Shown one piece after another: positions 2,973 through 26,762 of a stretch of DNA of 64,000 nt; within the stretch, counting starts at the first letter, position 1, and each line of letters begins with the position of its first letter. Source of the DNA: an uncultured Candidatus Saccharibacteria bacterium (lineage in GTDB: Bacteria > Patescibacteriota > Saccharimonadia > Saccharimonadales > AWTP1-31); the NCBI GenBank assembly GCA_964629815.1, contig CAZVTA010000002.1, positions 66,096 to 130,095 on the forward strand. Direction: 5' to 3'. The translations under genes and the position numbers were made by a program. The notes below the pieces were generated by a model. That model saw only the letters and a list, made by a program, of their open reading frames with translations, searched no databases and was not told the origin of the DNA.

Positions 2973-5048
2973 TTACTTTGGGTCTTGGTTGAGGAGCTTC
3001 GCGCGCATCTCCTGGAAACGCCTCTGTACTTCGTCGGCCTGGTCCTCTACTTTGGGTTCTGCTGTTTTAGGGTTCTGCTGTTTACCGTTTCCACCCTGCT
3101 GGCCATTTTGCTGACGCCCGCCACCGGCACCACTCACTACATTTACCACTGGAATAACAATAGGGCTGCGCTGAGTTTGGTCGAATAAGAAGTGTGTAAC
3201 ATGTTCTCGCAGCTCCTGCTTAAATCTATCGAGATCGACACGACGATAGCGCTGTTGTACTGCTCGCTTCAACTCTGCGCGCAAACTTGTCATAAGCTCC
3301 TCGCTATCGCGCATATAGATGAATCCTCGACTAATAATATCGGGGCTCGTTAACAAAGCGCCTGATTTCTTATCGATTGTCAGCACGATAGCTACTAAAC
3401 CTTCTTCGCTAAGCATAACGCGGTCTTTTACGACCACACCGCTCACAACTGCTCCCGTCTGATCGACAAGCAAGCTACCATGTGGCACTTGACCAGCCTC
3501 TTGATGCCCGTTTTCGTCAAAATACACGCTGTCACCATTGTTGAGTAACAAGACATTGTTCCTGTTCCAGCCTTCTTCGATTGCTATCTCAGCATGATAC
3601 TTACGTCGAAGCGCACCGGCGTGCACCGGCAAGACATATTTTGGTCGAATAATATGCATCATCTCGCGCATTTCGTCTCGGCGAGCGTGACCAGACACGT
3701 GTAGTGGGCCGCAGCCGTCAATTTCGTGGGTTGGATGCCTGAAAAGATGCACGCCAAGTTTGGCAAGGTTGTTGCCAATCATGTCGTAGCGAATTTCGTT
3801 TCCGGGAATTGGCGATGAGCTTACTACAACTGTATCGCCCGGCTTAAGCTTAATGTACTTGTGTGTACCTTCGCTCATTTTCTGCAAGGCTGCATTTGGT
3901 TCGCCTTGTCCGCCAGTGGCCATCACAAGAATTTTTTCATCTGGTATATTGGCGATGTCGCGCATAGCCATGAACGTACCCTTTGGTACCTTTAAAATTC
4001 CTTGACGAACTGCAATTTCTGCATAGCTCATCATGCTACGCCCATCGAGTGCAACTTTTCGACCGGCGGCAACAGCCGCGTTTACGATCATCTGGATTCG
4101 GTTCATATTACTCGAAAACACCGCACAGAATATACGTCCGTGAGACTGCTCTATAACATCATGAAAACTTTGCTGCAAGGTATGTTCGGTTGGCGTACGA
4201 CCTTCTGAGTCGGAGTAGCTACTCTCGGTTAGCAGCAACATGACTCCTTCGTCACCAAGTTGCTTTAGCCTTGATATATCACTTGGATGATGGTCGAGTG
4301 GTTCTGGGTCGAGGCGAAAATCACCCGTTGCGATAATGCGCCCAACGGGCGTATCGATACATACCGACGATGCCTCGGGGATTGAGTGTGTGATACGAAT
4401 AAGTTCGATGGTAAATACCCCAACCTTCAAGCGTTCGTGGCCATCCATATTCATCACCATTAGCTTGGGCGTAAACGTTTCCGTGCCTGCAGGAAGATCT
4501 TCAAACGTCTTTTCCACGACGCCAAGAGTAAAGCGCGATCCGTAAATTGGTGCAGGAAACATTGGCACAATGTGCTTTAGGCCGCCTATATGGTCAAGAT
4601 GGCCATGTGTTATAACATAGCCCTTAATCTTATGCTTTATGGTTTCAAGGTACGAAGGGTCAGCAATTTCGTAGTTAATACCCGGCAAATCAACGCCAAG
4701 ATTGTTACCGCAATCGAGAATAATCGCATCGTTCTGATACTCAATAATTGCCGTGTTCTTCTCACCAACATCGTCGAGACCCCCAAGGAATGTTAATTTG
4801 AGCTTATCGAATGCATCGGTAATTTTATTGGCTCGACGTGCTTCTTGAGGCTTATTTGCTGCCGATGCATACTGGCTGACAAGTTTGTGTGCATCGTCGG
4901 CATTGCGCTTTTGAGCGCGAATTGCAGCACCACGCGAAGCGGCACGAATTGGCGTTGGGCCGCTGATTGGTCGGCCTTTGCCCTGTTTATTATTCTGGTT
5001 GTTTCGTTGCCCATTTTTATTCCTTGGGCTTTGTTTTGGTTGTTCCAT
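2973..5048 (-). CDS. rnj: ribonuclease J (metallo-beta-lactamase/beta-CASP) with basic low-complexity N- and C-terminal tails
   Basis: HGHLDHIGG motif and overall RNase J layout. I prefer the ATG at 5048 (MEQPKQ), which follows AAAGGAAAAT, over the track start at 5087, which would overlap the UDG gene. Confidence 0.9.
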   Translation of the reverse strand: MEQPKQSPRNKNGQRNNQNNKQGKGRPISGPTPIRAASRGAAIRAQKRNADDAHKLVSQYASAANKPQEARRANKITDAFDKLKLTFLGGLDDVGEKNTAIIEYQNDAIILDCGNNLGVDLPGINYEIADPSYLETIKHKIKGYVITHGHLDHIGGLKHIVPMFPAPIYGSRFTLGVVEKTFEDLPAGTETFTPKLMVMNMDGHERLKVGVFTIELIRITHSIPEASSVCIDTPVGRIIATGDFRLDPEPLDHHPSDISRLKQLGDEGVMLLLTESSYSDSEGRTPTEHTLQQSFHDVIEQSHGRIFCAVFSSNMNRIQMIVNAAVAAGRKVALDGRSMMSYAEIAVRQGILKVPKGTFMAMRDIANIPDEKILVMATGGQGEPNAALQKMSEGTHKYIKLKPGDTVVVSSSPIPGNEIRYDMIGNNLAKLGVHLFRHPTHEIDGCGPLHVSGHARRDEMREMMHIIRPKYVLPVHAGALRRKYHAEIAIEEGWNRNNVLLLNNGDSVYFDENGHQEAGQVPHGSLLVDQTGAVVSGVVVKDRVMLSEEGLVAIVLTIDKKSGALLTSPDIISRGFIYMRDSEELMTSLRAELKRAVQQRYRRVDLDRFKQELREHVTHFLFDQTQRSPIVIPVVNVVSGAGGGRQQNGQQGGNGKQQNPKTAEPKVEDQADEVQRRFQEMRAKLLNQDPK

Positions 5049-5076
5049 ATTTTCCTTTCTTATTAGAAGAGATTTA

Positions 5077-5667
5077 TTATTGTTCAATTTGTTTTGCTAT
5101 AACGGGAACTCGAGCGAAGTCGTCCATGAGGACTGCCCGCATACTACCGTTATAGAGTGCTGCTGCAGGATGATAGAGCGGTAAAATAACCCACGTCTGC
5201 TGTTTTCCCTGCACCATTACTTGTATGCGTTTGGGTTGGCCATGAATGGCGCTAATCTGTAAACCCGGCAGGAAGCAATTAGTACTATGGCGACCCAAGG
5301 TAACAATTATCTTGGGGCTAATCGCTGCTAGCTGAGCATACAGAAATGGCAAGAACGCCTCTTTTTCTTCGGGCAATGGATCCCGATTGTTAGGGGGGCG
5401 ATACTTGACTATATTGGTTATGTAAATGTCCGAGCGGTCTAGGTCTACACTCGCAAGCATTTCATCTAGAAATTTTCCCGCAGCTCCAACGAATGGCTTG
5501 CCGTGCAGATCTTCGTTTTTACCTGGTGCTTCGCCAACAAATACGATGTCTGCGTCGGCATTACCCGTGCCGAATACCAGTTGTGTGGCCTGTTTGGCCA
5601 AATCTGGACAGATATTTTTTTTGAGAATATCTGCCTTAATTTGGTCAAGAAGCGCTTGCTTATCCAT
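5077..5667 (-). CDS. uracil-DNA glycosylase, family 4-like (Fe-S ligands missing)
   Basis: Motifs GEAPGKNED, PFVGAAGKFLD, YITNIVKYRPPNNRDP and HPAAAL match the family-4 UDG signature. The usual cluster cysteines are substituted (see findings). Confidence 0.85.
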   Translation of the reverse strand: MDKQALLDQIKADILKKNICPDLAKQATQLVFGTGNADADIVFVGEAPGKNEDLHGKPFVGAAGKFLDEMLASVDLDRSDIYITNIVKYRPPNNRDPLPEEKEAFLPFLYAQLAAISPKIIVTLGRHSTNCFLPGLQISAIHGQPKRIQVMVQGKQQTWVILPLYHPAAALYNGSMRAVLMDDFARVPVIAKQIEQ

Positions 5668-8482: not shown

Positions 8483-9172
8483 TTATGCAAGATTTTTTTC
8501 TAGCGACGCTTCCGGTGTACTCGCTTCGGCAATTGACCATTTGCCAATGCTTGTACGGCGAAGATTAGTTATGTATGCACCTGTACCTAATTTTGCGCCT
8601 ATATCTGCCACCAAACTACGAATATACGTACCGCTTGAAACTTTAGTGGTGAATGTCACCAAAGGATAGTCGTAATTAATGTCAGAAATTGAATAAATAG
8701 TTATCTTTCGGGGCTCTAACTTTACATCTTTTCCCTCTCTGGCAAGCTTATAGGCTCTTTTACCGTCGACCTTAATTGCGGAGTACACTGGAGGAACTTG
8801 GGAAATTTCACCGACAAAACTGCTCGCCACATCGTTAAGTTCTTCTGCGCTAGGCATTTTGTCGGATACCTTAGTTTTTTCGCCTTCTTCGTCTGCTGTG
8901 GTGCTTGTTTGGCCAAGTTTCAGCTCTACATCGTACACCTTATCGAGCTTCATAAACTCGTCTTGTCGCTTGGTCGCCTTGCCTACAAGCACAATGAGTA
9001 GCCCCGTTGCGAGTGGGTCGAGCGTACCAGCGTGGCCAACTTTTATTTTTTGACCAGTTTGTTTACGTAGATCTGATCGAATCTTCCCAACCACATCAAA
9101 AGACGTCCAACCTTTTGGCTTATCTATAAGAATTACGTCATCCATGCCTAACAGCGTAGCATATTCACACAA
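8483..9172 (-). CDS. truB: tRNA pseudouridine(55) synthase TruB
   Basis: Catalytic motif GHAGTLDPLATGLL, plus ILIDKPKGWTSFDVV. The true start may be the internal ATG at 9145 (MDDVILIDKP). Confidence 0.9.
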   Translation of the reverse strand: MCEYATLLGMDDVILIDKPKGWTSFDVVGKIRSDLRKQTGQKIKVGHAGTLDPLATGLLIVLVGKATKRQDEFMKLDKVYDVELKLGQTSTTADEEGEKTKVSDKMPSAEELNDVASSFVGEISQVPPVYSAIKVDGKRAYKLAREGKDVKLEPRKITIYSISDINYDYPLVTFTTKVSSGTYIRSLVADIGAKLGTGAYITNLRRTSIGKWSIAEASTPEASLEKNLA

Positions 9173-10984
9173 CTACGACGCAGTGGGTGGCATAAACGGT
9201 GGTGGCACAGGTGGTGGTGGCGTTGGGTTGCCTGACCCTGCTGTAGGATCTTTAGGCAGTTCACTGACTGGCTTTACAAGTTGTTCGGGAAATGCAGCTG
9301 CAGATGTTGGTTCAGGTGATTTGCCAAGATCTATCGGCTGTGCATTCAAAGATTGCACCGGTGCCGGCCGATCATTGGCGTCAGACAAATGCGCGTCGGC
9401 AACTGCCTTACGTGCATCGTCTGCAGCCTGAATGTGCGGACTATCCACCGATTCTTCTATTTGTGATAGTGTTTTTTCCGTATTCGACAATGGTTCTAGC
9501 GATTTTGCATGCGTCATACTATCAGAGTCTTTACTCGTCTCGGCCATTGGATTAACGCTTGGAGGTGTAACTTCTGGCTTATCGTTTGCGCTCAGAGGGC
9601 TGCCGAGTGTTGGTGGCTGCAAGATCATCTGTGACCCACCGGCCGATGGCGCCTGAGCTGGCTGCTGGGCTTCTTGTTTCTTCGCCTCTTCTACCCTGTG
9701 CAAACGTCCTTCGTCATCTATATGAATCTTATCAAGTGGGTCATATTCGCTTTCTTCGTTTTCGGCCTCTAGCTCTGAAAGCGATTTGCCGCTGTCAGAG
9801 TCGTCCTGCTTTGCTTGTGGTTCGTCTTTTGGCTCGTCTTCTTTATGACTAATTTCTAAAGAACCGTCTGCCTTTGACTTTTTTGCTTCGTTTTCTTTTG
9901 CGAGTTCGTTTAGTTTACCACTGTCAAAATCTTCTTCTTTTGGGATAGCCTTTGGCTCTTCGAGCTTATTAGCGACCAATTGCTGATTAGCGCCAGCCTT
10001 CATAAGCAAAGCCGAAACATTCATAGTATGAGGCGTTGTCTTGTCGTTGCTAAAACGCTCGGTTTCGGCCACAACACCCGTTAGGAACGCAGTTGCTACC
10101 TGTTCGTCAAGAACAGTTTTATTACCTTGAAGAGGCTCAATAATGCTCACAAGCATTTCACATAAGCTGCTGGCTTGGGGATCGAACCAATTAAGAGAGC
10201 CAATGTCAGCATTGTTTTTGTTATTAACCGTAATAACAACTGCATCGTGCAAAATCCTACCATGGGCGGTAATTGCTTCATCGAGCTCTTCGCGTTGATG
10301 CACGCCAATCGCTACGACAACATCAACATTAAAATCGCCTTGACTAAATTCTAGATCTTCTTGGCTTAAACTGGTGTGATACGGTGTTATAAATATTTTG
10401 ACAAACTGGTCCTCGACCTTGTATCGAAGCTTATCAGCCTTTGACTTGTCGAGAGCAATTATGAAATCGCGAAGGCTGTCAGTGGTTTTTTCGATAGTTT
10501 TTTCTGGCTGCAAGAACTCAATCGTACTAGGTACCGCACCACTAAATACTGCAGTAGCATGCTTATCGAGCTTGTTCAGCACTAACGTGGTGGCTATCGC
10601 AGAAGATAATTGATCAACTGACGGATTCTTGCTTACTGTTACCAGTACATTGTTGGCCTGCCGTAGTTTTTCGATAACCTCTTGCTGAACCGGGCCAGGC
10701 TGGTCGCCTGTTTGCGCCTGAGCCATCGGCATGGGCTGCTGAGGCAACAGTGTGTTAAGCGCACTCGGGTTTCCATGGTTTGTAATCGGCGGTACTAATG
10801 GCGCATTCTTATCTATTGGCATTTGTGGTGGCGGACTATACGGAACGAGTGGATCTGCCATGGGCTGCATGGGTTGTTGCCCACTCGAAGGCATCGGCGC
10901 ATTCAGCGGGGCGCCGACATCATTAGCAGGTCCAAGATTATTGGCTGGCGGTATATAGGGTTGTAGTGGTGCTGAGGGATCCAT
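9173..10984 (-). CDS. NrnA/DHH-fold-like protein with degenerate catalytic motifs, flanked by Pro-rich and K/E-rich low-complexity regions
   Basis: Residues ~101-340 align by eye with the NrnA DHH domain, but DHH reads NNK and the motif I/II/IV acidic residues are replaced. No DHHA1 domain. The stop abuts truB. Confidence 0.65.
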   Translation of the reverse strand: MDPSAPLQPYIPPANNLGPANDVGAPLNAPMPSSGQQPMQPMADPLVPYSPPPQMPIDKNAPLVPPITNHGNPSALNTLLPQQPMPMAQAQTGDQPGPVQQEVIEKLRQANNVLVTVSKNPSVDQLSSAIATTLVLNKLDKHATAVFSGAVPSTIEFLQPEKTIEKTTDSLRDFIIALDKSKADKLRYKVEDQFVKIFITPYHTSLSQEDLEFSQGDFNVDVVVAIGVHQREELDEAITAHGRILHDAVVITVNNKNNADIGSLNWFDPQASSLCEMLVSIIEPLQGNKTVLDEQVATAFLTGVVAETERFSNDKTTPHTMNVSALLMKAGANQQLVANKLEEPKAIPKEEDFDSGKLNELAKENEAKKSKADGSLEISHKEDEPKDEPQAKQDDSDSGKSLSELEAENEESEYDPLDKIHIDDEGRLHRVEEAKKQEAQQPAQAPSAGGSQMILQPPTLGSPLSANDKPEVTPPSVNPMAETSKDSDSMTHAKSLEPLSNTEKTLSQIEESVDSPHIQAADDARKAVADAHLSDANDRPAPVQSLNAQPIDLGKSPEPTSAAAFPEQLVKPVSELPKDPTAGSGNPTPPPPVPPPFMPPTAS

Positions 10985-12478: not shown

Positions 12479-14149
12479 CTATACTGCGGTAAATTCTGAA
12501 CGACGGAGCGGAACAGGTGGTCGAGGATCTATACTGCGCCTCGTTGGTCGTACGGAACGCATAAAAGAACCGTTAAAACTAGGGTTATTTCGGAAATAGA
12601 ATTGCTTACCACCCACTTCTCTTCGAGTTACTGCCATTGAGGTATATGCGCCACCGTCGCATGCTTGCAACATTTTACAAAGCAAACGATAACTCTTAAT
12701 CATATCAATCGTCAAGACCATATCTTCTCCGTACATTTTGCGTAACACTTGGATAGCATGGGTATTAAAGGCGTCTTCTACATCCTCGCCACGTATATCG
12801 CGGCGGAAAACATACTCAGAACCTTCACCAATCATGCCAAGGATTAGTGTTTGGGTTCGTTCAGTAACTCCGAGTTCGTTCATAAAACGCTGTGCTTCAA
12901 TTTGGTTGTTGTCTTTCTGATAATCCCTACTACCAAGCGGTTTTCCAATATCATGCACCAGAAGTGCCAGTCGCATAGGAGCGAGCAGTGCCACCGGTAG
13001 ATTGTCGGCAAGACTCTCATCGAACATACGTAAGACTGTTTCAGTATGCTCACCAAGCGTGTACCGCTCCCAAACACCCGAATCCATGTCGAATCTATCC
13101 TCAAAACCGGGTACCTTTTTAGCAAGTTCAATAAGTCGCTCGGGTTTGGCATGCGCATCTTCGACAAGCACCCGGACTAGTTCATGGTTTTCGATAGACT
13201 CTTTGCCGGCAATACTCTCTAAATGTACAAATCTACCCAGTTTAGCGGCAATTTTCGCTCTCTTTTCTTGATAGAATTCGGGGGTATTAACACGCGACAG
13301 ATCAAACATGGAGTATGTTTCTACTGTTCTGCCGAGTGTAGCGGAGTTCATCATTTGACGAACGCCGACAACATGATTTTGCTCAAAAAATCTAGCTGCG
13401 TACTCTAAATTGACTGGTACGTCTACTGGCTGATTATTTGAATCCATTACTTTTATATCTGCAACGTTACTTTCATTAAGAAGCATGGTCTGTGCAATTT
13501 TTGTAGGATTAATCTCCATACACCGGCCGACGTTATAAACGCTTGCTACGTGTTGAACAAGGCCCTTGTCATACCCATTAAACGCTTCGTCATTTATGTC
13601 AGTGTAGCCAAAAAATGGTAATTGTTTTGAGCGTCTATAGCTATGTACTTCGGCAAACAAAGCAACATATTGGTCTTTGTCCTTAAAGTCAACAGGCGCT
13701 CCTTCGCTCGTTTTTGGCATTACTGTTCGTAACGCCGCTACATACTTCTTGTGTGACTCTGTATCAAGCTTACTTGGGTCAAAGGTCATGTCTAATACTC
13801 GTGCATCAGCATCTCGAGCTACGATATCATGAACCTGAACTTCCAAATTTGGGTCAGTACGGACCTTTTCGCGCACCCTCGCAGTCGCAAAATCTCGAGC
13901 ATCTTCTTCAGCGCCAGTATAGAGCGTTGTCCGTGCGTGGACATTCAGATTACCAGTCCGATCACCCCCATTATGAAAACTTGGCTCAACTTGCCACGGC
14001 TCACCTGGTCGCGCAGCACGACCATGGCTTAAATCGAGCTCAGAAACCATATGAAAAAGACCAAGTTCAGTAAGTGTCTGGAGTGCCTTATATTGCTCCG
14101 CCGACTCGAGACTACGCGAAAACTCTTGCCGTGTTTGAAATTCAGTCAT
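12479..14149 (-). CDS. HD-domain protein with large uncharacterised N-terminal region
   Basis: H...HD signature (YTLGEHTETVL ... LALLVHDIGKP) at about residues 385-420 of 556. The preceding ~350 aa show no recognisable motif. Confidence 0.7.
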   Translation of the reverse strand: MTEFQTRQEFSRSLESAEQYKALQTLTELGLFHMVSELDLSHGRAARPGEPWQVEPSFHNGGDRTGNLNVHARTTLYTGAEEDARDFATARVREKVRTDPNLEVQVHDIVARDADARVLDMTFDPSKLDTESHKKYVAALRTVMPKTSEGAPVDFKDKDQYVALFAEVHSYRRSKQLPFFGYTDINDEAFNGYDKGLVQHVASVYNVGRCMEINPTKIAQTMLLNESNVADIKVMDSNNQPVDVPVNLEYAARFFEQNHVVGVRQMMNSATLGRTVETYSMFDLSRVNTPEFYQEKRAKIAAKLGRFVHLESIAGKESIENHELVRVLVEDAHAKPERLIELAKKVPGFEDRFDMDSGVWERYTLGEHTETVLRMFDESLADNLPVALLAPMRLALLVHDIGKPLGSRDYQKDNNQIEAQRFMNELGVTERTQTLILGMIGEGSEYVFRRDIRGEDVEDAFNTHAIQVLRKMYGEDMVLTIDMIKSYRLLCKMLQACDGGAYTSMAVTRREVGGKQFYFRNNPSFNGSFMRSVRPTRRSIDPRPPVPLRRSEFTAV

Positions 14150-14192: not shown

Positions 14193-15068
14193 TTATATGT
14201 CAACTGGTTGGCATTTTGGACATATATGAGTACCGCGACCGGCAACACGAATCTTGACCACAACCTCACCACAGCGCGGGCAGTTCTGACCTTCACGCCG
14301 GAATACTCGTGCAAAGCTCATATAGCTACCTTTTTTGCCTTTGGCGTTTACATAATTCCTATCGGTTGAACCGCCTTTTTCGATAGCAAGACGCAGTACG
14401 TATTGAAGTTCGGTATGTAATCGTTTTATTGCCTTGTCAGAAACGTCTTTAACCCGTTTCGATGGGTGTATTTTTGCTCCCCATAAACTCTCGTCGGCAT
14501 AAATATTTCCCACTCCTGCGAGAACCGTCTGGTCAAGCAACGCCGCCTTAATAGTAGTATTTGCGCGGCGTCGAAGTCGGTCTGTAAACACCTTGGCGGT
14601 AAATTCGTCAGATAGCGGCTCTGGACCAACTTTCTTAAAGAAATCAATCGAGGAAATTTCGATCGTCGGATATACCTTAACCCAACCAAATTTACGCTGA
14701 TCATTGAAAAACAACATCGCACTCTCTGACAGCTTAAAGACAACACGCGTACTTTTATCTGGCAACCGGCCAACCAGTGATTCGTTTGGATGGCCTGCAC
14801 CAAATGAATCATCGCGACCTCTATAGACAAGCTGACCAGTCATTTTTAGGTGTATAACAAGTGAATACTGCGTGCTGAGATCTATGAGTAGTACTTTAGC
14901 TCGTCGGCGCACATTCGTAACAGTGCTACCGATAACAAACTCATCGACATCTGTCCTGCTATTCGGAAACGTCTTCTCCCAGTCGCTATGTACAGCCTTG
15001 ATCTGCTTGCCAACTAATAAATCGACAAGGCCACGTCGTACAGTTTCTACCTCTGGAAGCTCTGGCAT
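14193..15068 (-). CDS. mutM: formamidopyrimidine-DNA glycosylase (Fpg/MutM)
   Basis: Starts MPELPEVETVRRGL (catalytic Pro2). C-terminal zinc finger is CPRCGEVVVKIRVAGRGTHICPKC. The start was moved from the track's 15236 to the ATG at 15068. Confidence 0.9.
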   Translation of the reverse strand: MPELPEVETVRRGLVDLLVGKQIKAVHSDWEKTFPNSRTDVDEFVIGSTVTNVRRRAKVLLIDLSTQYSLVIHLKMTGQLVYRGRDDSFGAGHPNESLVGRLPDKSTRVVFKLSESAMLFFNDQRKFGWVKVYPTIEISSIDFFKKVGPEPLSDEFTAKVFTDRLRRRANTTIKAALLDQTVLAGVGNIYADESLWGAKIHPSKRVKDVSDKAIKRLHTELQYVLRLAIEKGGSTDRNYVNAKGKKGSYMSFARVFRREGQNCPRCGEVVVKIRVAGRGTHICPKCQPVDI

Positions 15069-15107
15069 AGTATCTGTATTGTAACAGCGGTAGCGTATAC
15101 TATCCAT

Positions 15108-15347
15108 ATGATAGATTCCGTTGGTGACCTGTTGCACAATAGACGCCCCACAACGCCGCCCGAGATAGATCGTATCAAGCAGTACATAAAAAAACGATAC
15201 GACAAGACCGTTTCGGTTGAAATACACAAAAATCACATTAGCATCGTAACGCCCAGCGCAGCACTGGCGAATACGCTACGTCTTGATATGCCGCAAGTTC
15301 AAGCCGCTGCCGAATCTGATAAAAAAATTGTTATCAAGATCGGCTAG
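15108..15347 (+). CDS. small DUF721/DciA-like protein (tentative)
   Basis: 79 aa. The pattern ...HISIVTPSAALANTLRLDMPQVQAAA...KKIVIKIG resembles DUF721 family members. Divergent from fpg with a 39-nt gap. Confidence 0.45.
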   Translation: MIDSVGDLLHNRRPTTPPEIDRIKQYIKKRYDKTVSVEIHKNHISIVTPSAALANTLRLDMPQVQAAAESDKKIVIKIG

Positions 15348-25880: not shown

Positions 25881-26218
25881 AAATCTGGTGTTTCTGCGGC
25901 TGTTTTTGTAACAAGATTATAGCTGTGTCGAATAAGGTCTTGCACTTCTTCCCAACTAAGCTGACCAGTCAACACAATTGTATTCCAATGCTTCTTGTTT
26001 AAATGATAGCCCGGCATAACAGTTTCGTATTTTTCGCGCAGGAGCGTCGCGAGACGCGGATCGCATTTAAGACTTATCCGCACCGGCGAAGACTTCTCTG
26101 TCAATAAAGCGAACATCTTGTCGCCCGCCTTGTATACCGCCACACCCTCGCCAAACGGATAGTCTAACACCGCGTTGGGCATAGATAAGATATAGTCCTC
26201 TACCTGTTTATGATTCAT
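25877..26218 (-). CDS. MmcQ/YjbR family protein
   Basis: Pattern YPFGEGVAVYKAGDKMFALL ... PGYHLNKKHWNTIVL is typical of the YjbR family. Confidence 0.7.
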   Translation of the reverse strand: MNHKQVEDYILSMPNAVLDYPFGEGVAVYKAGDKMFALLTEKSSPVRISLKCDPRLATLLREKYETVMPGYHLNKKHWNTIVLTGQLSWEEVQDLIRHSYNLVTKTAAETPDF

Positions 26219-26762
26219 TGTCCGTTAAAACACTTAAATAATGTTGCAACTCAGCAATGCTTGCCTGAATATCATCAAAAGCGCGGTGCACTTCTTTCTT
26301 CTCAAACACAACACCATATTTACCCTGCATCACGATTTTCAAGCTACTTACATCAAGCATTCGATAGTGCAGCTTCACATCTAGTTCGGGCCAATAACGC
26401 TTAATAAACAAACGATCATTCCATATTGAGTTGCCAGCTAACACTACCGGCTCAGCCCCAAAATGTTCCTTGAGAAGTACGATCAACTCTTTTTCAACTT
26501 CCTCAATATCTTTTCCGTCATCAAGTCTGTGTAGAAAATCATCTCGATTGTGCGGATATTGCTGCCACCAGTTGTTTGCCTGCATACGCTTAACCACGAC
26601 ATCTCGTGGCTGCCTTACACGCGCCTCATAACTAGCAAGTGTCTTGAAGTTAAAGTCTGTTATTTCGGCCGCTATCTCAAGGATGACGTCGTTTTGGGTA
26701 TCAAGACCAGTCATCTCAAGATCCACCCAGAGCAGTTTTGTTGGTATGGCGTTCTTGTTCAT
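26208..26762 (-). CDS. orn: oligoribonuclease
   Basis: DEDDh exonuclease motifs LLWVDLEMTGLD, AGNSIWNDRLF and HRAFDDIQASIAEL. 184 aa. Confidence 0.85.
   Translation of the reverse strand: MNKNAIPTKLLWVDLEMTGLDTQNDVILEIAAEITDFNFKTLASYEARVRQPRDVVVKRMQANNWWQQYPHNRDDFLHRLDDGKDIEEVEKELIVLLKEHFGAEPVVLAGNSIWNDRLFIKRYWPELDVKLHYRMLDVSSLKIVMQGKYGVVFEKKEVHRAFDDIQASIAELQHYLSVLTDNES

Follow-up and report, generated by a model that had tools for sequence, protein, structure and literature searches.

What is the function of a protein that retains the fold of a nanoRNA-degrading enzyme but has exchanged most of the residues on which catalysis depends? This question is raised by an open reading frame (ORF) located immediately upstream of truB on contig CAZVTA010000002.1 of an uncultured Candidatus Saccharibacteria bacterium, within a stretch of 64,000 nucleotides that is called the window throughout this text. 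An initial annotation, made from the sequence alone, had described the ORF product as a retained but catalytically dead relative of NrnA. Our best explanation, to which we assign a probability of roughly 60%, is that the protein is a non-catalytic descendant of NrnA-type DHH proteins that has been kept across Saccharibacteria in a structural role, as an adaptor or scaffold. Such a role is likelier than that of an RNA-degrading enzyme because both the catalytic residues and the substrate-binding domain have been lost and because the protein carries a long tail with conserved motifs. The parts of the ORF that are needed to follow this argument are as follows.

9173..10984, minus strand: whole ORF, 603 amino acids plus stop codon, a member of a degenerate DHH family found across Saccharibacteria
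9953..10708, minus strand: degenerate NrnA-type DHH domain with linker helix, residues 93-344, located with Pfam, PDB, AlphaFold2 and Foldseek
9176..9952, minus strand: acidic, proline-rich tail, residues 345-603, net charge -25, isoelectric point (pI) 4.5, with a predicted local distance difference test (pLDDT) score mostly below 60

The relationship to DHH phosphoesterases is evident from several independent comparisons. The Pfam profile PF01368 (DHH) aligns with residues 112-304 of the window protein (E=9.7e-5) and does so over all 125 of its positions, although the score of 23.1 bits remains under the gathering cut-off of 28.1. Fifty-six of 65 family members match this profile at E<=0.01, the best at E=1.3e-7. 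The protein also falls outside the NCBIfam NrnA model NF053633 (K06881), which covers only residues 253-343 and yields 25.9 bits compared to a cut-off of 350. When the whole protein was compared with Pfam and NCBIfam, the tail was left unmatched and neither collection held a dedicated model for the family. A phmmer search of PDB sequences recovered SH1221 (3DEV; 2.7e-8), T. maritima TmPDE (TM1595; 2e-7) and NrnA entries, with every alignment confined to residues ~99-348. A profile built from the 65 family members gave stronger matches to the same proteins (3DEV, 1.4e-15; S. aureus NrnA, 7.7e-12).

AlphaFold2 was run twice, once with the full protein and once with the core and 150 sequences, and the core model reached a pLDDT of 83 and a predicted TM-score (pTM) of 0.85. 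The top Foldseek match of the model is TmPDE (E=4.6e-12, TMq 0.61), and all 49 of the 49 matches at E<=0.001 are DHH proteins, including B. subtilis NrnA, S. aureus NrnA, Rv2837c, GdpP, a D. radiodurans RecJ-like protein and family II pyrophosphatases. Both profile and structure thus place the protein in the DHH superfamily at the level of the fold, as an N-terminal alpha/beta domain with a five-stranded parallel sheet. Because Pfam, phmmer, the family profile and AlphaFold2 with Foldseek all return DHH proteins, we consider the homology to be real and the NrnA-type enzymes to be its nearest relatives. As judged from these alignments and models, a genuine DHH domain of the NrnA type occupies the middle of the ORF (residues ~93-344), in keeping with the by-eye alignment of residues ~101-340 to NrnA in the initial annotation.

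The profile alignments also allowed the catalytic motifs to be mapped. In B. subtilis NrnA, the active site consists of H20, D24, D26, D80, H103, H104 and D156, wherein H103, D26, D80 and D156 bind the first metal ion and D24 and H20 bind the second (PMC5593865). The RNA substrate is bound by the DHHA1 domain via its RxRxR and GGGH elements (PMC5593865). We determined the equivalents of the active-site residues from HMMER alignments and counted them over 150 representative sequences at 50% identity. The corresponding segments of the window protein are the following.

10607..10639, minus strand: motif I remnant TVSKNPSVDQL, residues 116-126, from HMMER alignments
10301..10324, minus strand: DVVVAIGV, residues 221-228, strand beta3 in two AlphaFold2 runs
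10217..10240, minus strand: motif III remnant VVITVNNK, residues 249-256, from HMMER alignments
10046..10084, minus strand: motif IV remnant LTGVVAETERFSN, residues 301-313, from HMMER alignments and column counts

Only one of the three motif I residues remains. H20 is replaced by S118 (Ser in 139 of the 150 sequences) and D24 by S122 (Ser in 135, Thr in 13), and D26 is kept as D124 in every representative. The Asp-His-His triplet of motif III has become V253-N254-N255 in the window protein. The family as a whole has Ile or Val in place of the Asp, mostly Asn in place of H103 (118 Asn, 13 Ser, 11 Thr; His in a single sequence) and Thr, Asn or Val in place of H104, and His falls outside the six most frequent residues at both 253 and 255. 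In motif IV, D156 is replaced by E307 (Glu in 131 of 150, with Ala, Gln, Thr, Ser or Val in the remainder), and the NrnA-like T-x-R-F-x-N context around this residue is invariant. These substitutions are conserved across the representatives and are not peculiar to the window protein. Our alignments of motifs I, III and IV agree with those made by eye in the initial annotation, except that the triplet replacing DHH was placed one residue too far along, as NNK at 254-256.

The position of motif II is less certain. In both AlphaFold2 runs, VVVAI (residues 222-226, pLDDT 96) forms strand beta3 and thereby places G227, which is present in 150 of 150 representatives, at the site of the motif II Asp (D80 in B. 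subtilis NrnA). However, phmmer aligns TmPDE VVVD-ASSPDRI with FIIALD179-KSKADKL, at a spacing from strand beta2 that is exactly canonical, which makes the invariant D179 an alternative candidate. When the canonical beta3 segment was scored without gaps (BLOSUM) against the profile of the family, the two placements were nearly tied (10.1 versus 9.6, at positions 218 and 170). The predicted structure therefore exhibits the expected DHH fold and agrees with the by-eye placement of motif II, but differs on this one motif from the pairwise HMMER alignment.

Depending on this placement, five or six of the seven active-site residues of B. subtilis NrnA are substituted family-wide. Furthermore, Pfam reports only DHH, and no DHHA1 match, in any of the 65 family members, and the chain beyond residue ~344 is predicted to be disordered. 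The absence of DHHA1, which had been noticed at the outset, means that the protein also lacks the RxRxR and GGGH elements for nucleotide binding. Features of the second shell are retained (NPSVDQL; ASSLxE, or ASSxSE; and TxRFxN, as part of GIVxxTxRFxxxNT). From these alignments, a canonical two-metal nanoRNase mechanism appears very unlikely. The claim that all catalytic motifs are substituted is nevertheless overstated because D124 is invariant; most catalytic residues have indeed been lost, but E307 is a conservative replacement and D179 may fill motif II.

Loss of catalytic residues would be expected of a decaying gene, and therefore the distribution and conservation of the family are important for its interpretation. 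A word-indexed search recovered 487 relatives, the best with 60-80% identity and nearly all from Saccharibacteria, and an exhaustive profile search recovered 1445 representative clusters at E<=1e-30. The 149 representatives among the matches listed are 488-850 amino acids long (median 608), with the core at or near the N-terminus in almost all. By using LRDFIIALD and KADKLRYK as signatures and scanning one genome per species, we found a relative in at least 587 species genomes. The window protein carries the hallmarks of this family, which are the LRDFIIALD...KADKLRYK insertion, an N-terminal core followed by a motif tail, and a location between divergent rpsT and downstream truB. The 80 best loci are all from Saccharibacteria, save for a few bins whose labels appear to be wrong. 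Bins with the gene that are labelled Bacillota, Pristimantibacillus, Nitrosopolaris, Verrucomicrobiae or Binatia (L024, L035; P0018, P0063, P0081) are likely to be mislabelled or contaminated.

The gene order fpg-holA-(rpsT, divergent)-X-truB-rpsO-pnp, where X is the gene under study, is conserved in 68 of 82 loci. Among these 68, the gap between X and truB is 50 base pairs or less in 42 and exceeds 600 base pairs in 11.

8483..9172, minus strand: truB, directly downstream of X and followed by rpsO and pnp, from the ORF list and the conserved gene order

The ORF list confirms that the two ORFs abut (9172/9173) and that truB, rpsO and pnp follow in this order, and X and truB probably belong to one operon. 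The listed TTG start of truB at 9172 is probably too early, as the conserved N-terminus MDDVILIDKPKGWTS begins from codon 10. A start at that codon would open a gap of ~27 base pairs instead of 0, which still fits a single operon.

Across the 82 loci, the median identity of the core to that of the window protein is 70%, compared to 57% for TruB, 65% for Fpg, 67% for S20, 39% for HolA, 75% for S15 and 78% for PNPase, a comparison that is biased since the loci were picked by their similarity to the window protein. Dozens of columns are invariant across the 150 representatives. In eight close relatives, the proportion of non-synonymous differences (pN) is 0.10-0.16 in the core and 0.34-0.50 in the faster-evolving tails. 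Because synonymous sites are saturated (proportion of synonymous differences, pS, 0.66-0.94), only pN and pN/pS are usable, and not dN/dS. By these sequence measures, the family is strongly constrained and is not a relic.

The initial annotation had correctly described the C-terminal ~260 residues as rich in Lys and Glu and then in Pro, but this region is more than low-complexity sequence. In the window protein and 147 representatives (148 sequences), the tail has a median length of 360 amino acids (240-590 across the family), a median net charge of -41 and a Pro content of 20%; the core is acidic as well (pI ~5). Seven short motifs recur in fixed order, namely DGxLxIxH, IxIDxxGxL, PPxxGGxLTAN, TLxxxExxVxSPH, DxARxAV, PIxALNAQP and DPxAPPPVPPPMMPP, and the tail terminates in a near-universal APPPVPPPMMPP. 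All seven are present in the window protein, and AlphaFold2 confidence is locally higher at several of them.

9845..9868, minus strand: tail motif 1, DGSLEISH (consensus DGxLxIxH), in 118 of 148 sequences
9698..9730, minus strand: tail motif 2, KIHIDDEGRLH (consensus IxIDxxGxL), in 98 of 148 sequences, a predicted small beta-hairpin with pLDDT ~79
9584..9619, minus strand: tail motif 3, QPPTLGSPLSAN (consensus PPxxGGxLTAN), from conserved columns
9392..9472, minus strand: tail motifs 4 and 5, TLSQIEESVDSPH ... DDARKAVADA, predicted helices 506-533 with pLDDT ~75
9335..9361, minus strand: tail motif 6, PVQSLNAQP (consensus PIxALNAQP), from conserved columns
9185..9229, minus strand: tail motif 7, NPTPPPPVPPPFMPP (consensus DPxAPPPVPPPMMPP), near the C-terminus, pLDDT 76

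ARxxV, in the region of motifs 4 and 5, is present in 136 of the 148 sequences. A PPPVPPP-like motif is present in 130, at a median distance of 10 residues from the C-terminus (range 2-309). No further ORF in the window or in the 82 related loci (~0.75 Mb in total) contains this motif, and none of the other ORFs of the window is strongly Pro-rich.

Two further parts of the head are strongly conserved.

10322..10537, minus strand: family-specific region, residues ~150-221, with DSLRDFIIALDKSKADKLRYKVE and a beta-hairpin, recognized from invariant columns
9977..9994, minus strand: GANQQL, residues 331-336, where the DHH domain ends and the linker starts, in nearly invariant columns

No part of the protein is better conserved than the segment comprising residues ~150-221, in which DSLRDFIIALDKSKADKLRYKVE is nearly invariant. 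This segment is also the least confidently modelled one, with pLDDT values of 46-72 in the two AlphaFold2 models and of 58-72 for residues ~153-222 in the second run with 150 sequences. Conservation combined with poor modelling would be in line with an interface that takes up its ordered structure when a partner binds. For GANQQL, a role in dimerization seems plausible by analogy, given that the equivalent terminal helix and linker of M. smegmatis NrnA contribute to the dimer interface (PMC4081065).

The N-terminus is a more local feature in that most homologues start at ~residue 93 of the window protein.

10709..10984, minus strand: N-terminal Pro/Gln-rich extension, residues 1-92, delimited by the starts of homologues and shared by close relatives
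10949..10984, minus strand: conserved MDPxxPLQPYxP, or MDPxxPLQPY(V/I)P, at the start of the extension, in P0001, P0002 and loci L003-L012

The Pro/Gln-rich composition of this region had been described correctly, but the 92-residue extension is limited to the clade of the window protein and is not a family-wide feature. The extension recurs, together with its first 12 residues, in P0001, P0002 and loci L003-L012; its conserved start is present in at least 10 related genomes, and its pN is ~0.41-0.50. An internal start at M85 or M87 was considered and ruled out, since in close relatives the extension already matches from its very beginning. MDPxxPLQPY(V/I)P may be an additional, N-terminal docking motif.

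Some insight into the importance of the gene comes from Southlakia epibionticum. There, SEML1_0073 is a 1812-base-pair gene for a 'hypothetical protein' that follows fpg and holA, is divergent from S20 and lies upstream of truB, with two opposite-strand ORFs located between it and truB (PMC10633639). An AlphaFold/DPAM analysis assigned its product to 'DHH phosphoesterases' (e5o25B1, probability 0.997), and the gene is not mentioned in the main text of that study (PMC10633639). SEML1_0073 is the apparent counterpart of the window gene, as identified from position, length and fold annotation, not from sequence. In transposon-insertion sequencing (Tn-seq), it was scored as non-essential, growth defect and growth defect (NE/GD/GD), with 22, 17 and 10 insertions and 982, 608 and 269 normalized reads (PMC10633639 Table S1). 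The effect is a growth defect and not essentiality (PMC10633639).

The same organism informs a second proposal of the initial annotation, which was that the nanoRNase role had passed to Orn. The window does encode a canonical oligoribonuclease, which is included here for context only.

26208..26762, minus strand: canonical oligoribonuclease Orn, a member of NF003765 (149.5 bits, cut-off 106)

No second DHH gene is present within the 64-kb window, a count that applies to the window and not to the whole genome. However, Southlakia also encodes RecJ and SEML1_0394 (K06881), a canonical two-domain DHH phosphoesterase with a DHH and a C-terminal DHH-associated domain, which was scored as growth defect, essential and essential (GD/ES/ES), whereas its Orn (SEML1_0058) was scored as non-essential throughout (NE/NE/NE) (PMC10633639). 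The idea that Orn replaced NrnA is undermined because it is the two-domain DHH enzyme that is called essential and Orn that is called non-essential. Duplication of an NrnA-type gene, followed by repurposing of one copy, is more likely and fits these data better than a takeover by Orn.

How might a protein of this type act as an adaptor or scaffold? The folded head could serve as a conserved docking surface, possibly as a dimer like that of NrnA, and each tail motif could recruit a partner protein such that the whole forms a multivalent hub. The process served would most likely be RNA or ribosome housekeeping, as suggested by the conserved co-orientation and close spacing with truB-rpsO-pnp. 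We favor protein partners over direct nucleic-acid binding because head and tail are both acidic, and for the same reason we judge direct binding to nucleic acids to be unlikely. A far more specific version is quite speculative, and we hold it to be improbable. It describes a Saccharibacteria-specific hub in which the dead NrnA head, possibly sensing pAp, pApA or nanoRNA via a remnant pocket, uses seven docking motifs to assemble factors for RNA processing or ribosome maturation (e.g. PNPase, RNase J and TruB).

The adaptor or scaffold explanation agrees with the strong constraint, the apparent fitness role and the loss of both DHHA1 and most catalytic residues, yet several observations weigh against it. 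Some of these concern the supporting data, namely the biased choice of loci for the identity comparison, the low model confidence in the best conserved segment, the assignment of SEML1_0073 by position, length and fold annotation and its Tn-seq effect, which is a growth defect and not essentiality. Others concern the active site. D124 is found in every representative and E307 in most of them, and if D179 is the motif II residue, then three of the four ligands of the first metal site would be left and metal or ligand binding would be possible. Moreover, the adaptor reading offers no explanation for the invariant H142, H241, H246-D247, D173, D184, D235 and D293.

A rival explanation is that the protein still binds a metal or a ligand, or is an enzyme with a remodelled site. 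D124, together with D179 or E307 and N254, could form a single-metal site, or the protein could be a non-hydrolysing receptor for pAp, pApA, nanoRNA or some other phosphate ligand, with the tail relaying the signal. The invariance of D124, the frequencies of E307 (131/150) and N254 (118/150), the HMMER placement of D179 on the motif II Asp of TmPDE at canonical spacing from strand beta2, the retained second-shell features and the many otherwise unexplained His and Asp residues all speak for this possibility. Against it, the second metal site has lost its two ligands and the DHH motif its two histidines, the lack of DHHA1 removes RxRxR and GGGH, neither N254 nor E307 is invariant, and AlphaFold2 sets G227 rather than D179 at motif II. 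On balance, we regard a metal- or ligand-binding role as possible but unlikely.

Two other explanations fare considerably worse. A decaying nrnA relic, made redundant by Orn and with little present function, is favored by the substituted catalytic residues and by the presence of Orn in the same window. This reading is effectively refuted by conservation, as evident by a core whose conservation exceeds that of TruB, Fpg and S20, by the dozens of invariant columns in 150 representatives and by the fixed synteny in at least 587 species; the growth defect in Southlakia, where a two-domain DHH enzyme is essential and Orn is dispensable, also speaks against it, and we consider it scarcely tenable. 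A function at the level of translation is likewise highly improbable. Polyproline runs stall ribosomes in the absence of elongation factor P (EF-P), and the C-terminal PPPVPPP could therefore be an EF-P-dependent stalling element through which translation of truB, rpsO and pnp further downstream is adjusted. Nearly all members have the motif, at a median distance of 10 codons from the stop codon, which abuts truB in the window, with a gap of no more than 50 base pairs in 42 of 68 loci. However, the distance from motif to stop varies from 2 to 309 residues, the gap to truB exceeds 600 base pairs in 11 of 68 loci and two opposite-strand ORFs intervene in Southlakia. Stalling would also leave the conserved head, the other six motifs and the flanking DPxA...MMPP residues unexplained.

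Compared to known systems, the head of the adaptor or scaffold that we propose is closest in sequence and fold to the NrnA/Pde2/TmPDE-type DHH-DHHA1 proteins (COG0618, K06881; 5J21, 3DEV, 5O25), with which it has second-shell motifs in common. It differs from them by the change of H20 and D24 to Ser, of DHH to (I/V)-N-x, of D156 to Glu and probably of the motif II Asp to Gly, by the lack of DHHA1, and by the addition of a conserved insertion of ~45-50 amino acids and a disordered, motif-bearing tail of 240-590 amino acids. The genomic setting has a parallel in Actinobacteria, where nrnA (M. tuberculosis Rv2837c) is located in the rbfA/truB neighborhood.

There is precedent for degenerate DHH proteins that are inferred to be structural subunits and not nucleases, as proposed for CDC45 and the inactivated RecJ homologues of archaea (PMC3307487). 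Those proteins, of which RecJdbd and arCOG00428/00432 are the archaeal ones, likewise have a DHH fold with degenerate catalytic residues and are retained under selection. However, they belong to the RecJ clade, a DHHA1-like domain is preserved in the full-length forms (CDC45 and arCOG00428/00432), and all of them act together with MCM/GINS in replication. The window family belongs to the NrnA clade, as its best relatives are NrnA, TmPDE and GdpP and not RecJ, and it is DHH-only, with a motif tail, a bacterial host and a truB-rpsO-pnp context. To our knowledge, bacteria do not have a CMG complex. The analogy is therefore one of principle and not of membership.

RNase E offers a comparison for the overall layout. 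Its C-terminal half is disordered and scaffolds the degradosome, its head is an active enzyme, and RNA-binding segments are found in its basic tail. The window protein similarly has a folded head from a nuclease family followed by a long disordered region with short, ordered, conserved segments, and its gene is beside pnp and near rnj. In this case, the head is probably inactive and the tail carries a strong acidic charge; the two proteins are not similar in sequence, and partner docking is a prediction.

Several neighboring ORFs also deserve comment. The 556-residue ORF between holA and fpg (12479..14149, minus strand) has an HD-domain-like signature, GEHTETVLRMF ... LLVHDIGKP, and matches nothing in Pfam or NCBIfam even at E<=10. 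Because only one of the 82 loci has a relative here, it looks like a lineage-specific insertion into a gene order that is otherwise fixed. The RNase J ORF (2973..5087, minus strand; 704 amino acids) has ~100 residues before the metallo-beta-lactamase domain, which may be an extension or the result of an over-long start call. The Fpg ORF (14193..15236, minus strand) has ~56 residues before its glycosylase domain. This domain normally begins at the N-terminal catalytic Pro and relatives are 288-291 amino acids long; the true start is probably internal.

We found no report of this family in the literature on DHH or NrnA proteins of Saccharibacteria and Patescibacteria or on DHH pseudoenzymes. Some members, such as P0004, P0010, P0039, P0040 and P0072, bear enzyme names, either 'nanoRNase/pAp phosphatase (c-di-AMP/oligoRNAs hydrolase)' from JGI or, for some, 'DHH family phosphoesterase' from NCBI, and other database names read 'hypothetical protein'. 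The two enzyme names are probably over-annotations because the catalytic residues are lost and DHHA1 is missing. Recognition of these proteins as pseudoenzymes corrects metabolic reconstructions that count the family as a nanoRNase, and may add an undescribed bacterial case from the NrnA clade to the few inactivated DHH proteins on record. In the tiny genomes of Saccharibacteria (~1 Mb or less), nearly all conserved genes are expected to be necessary. The family provides concrete motifs that can be mutated and tested in the Southlakia genetic system, and such experiments could reveal both the partners of the protein and how RNA or ribosome housekeeping is organized in these epibionts. If the specific hub reading described above were true, ultrasmall epibiotic bacteria would have a degradosome-like scaffold built from a pseudo-nuclease.

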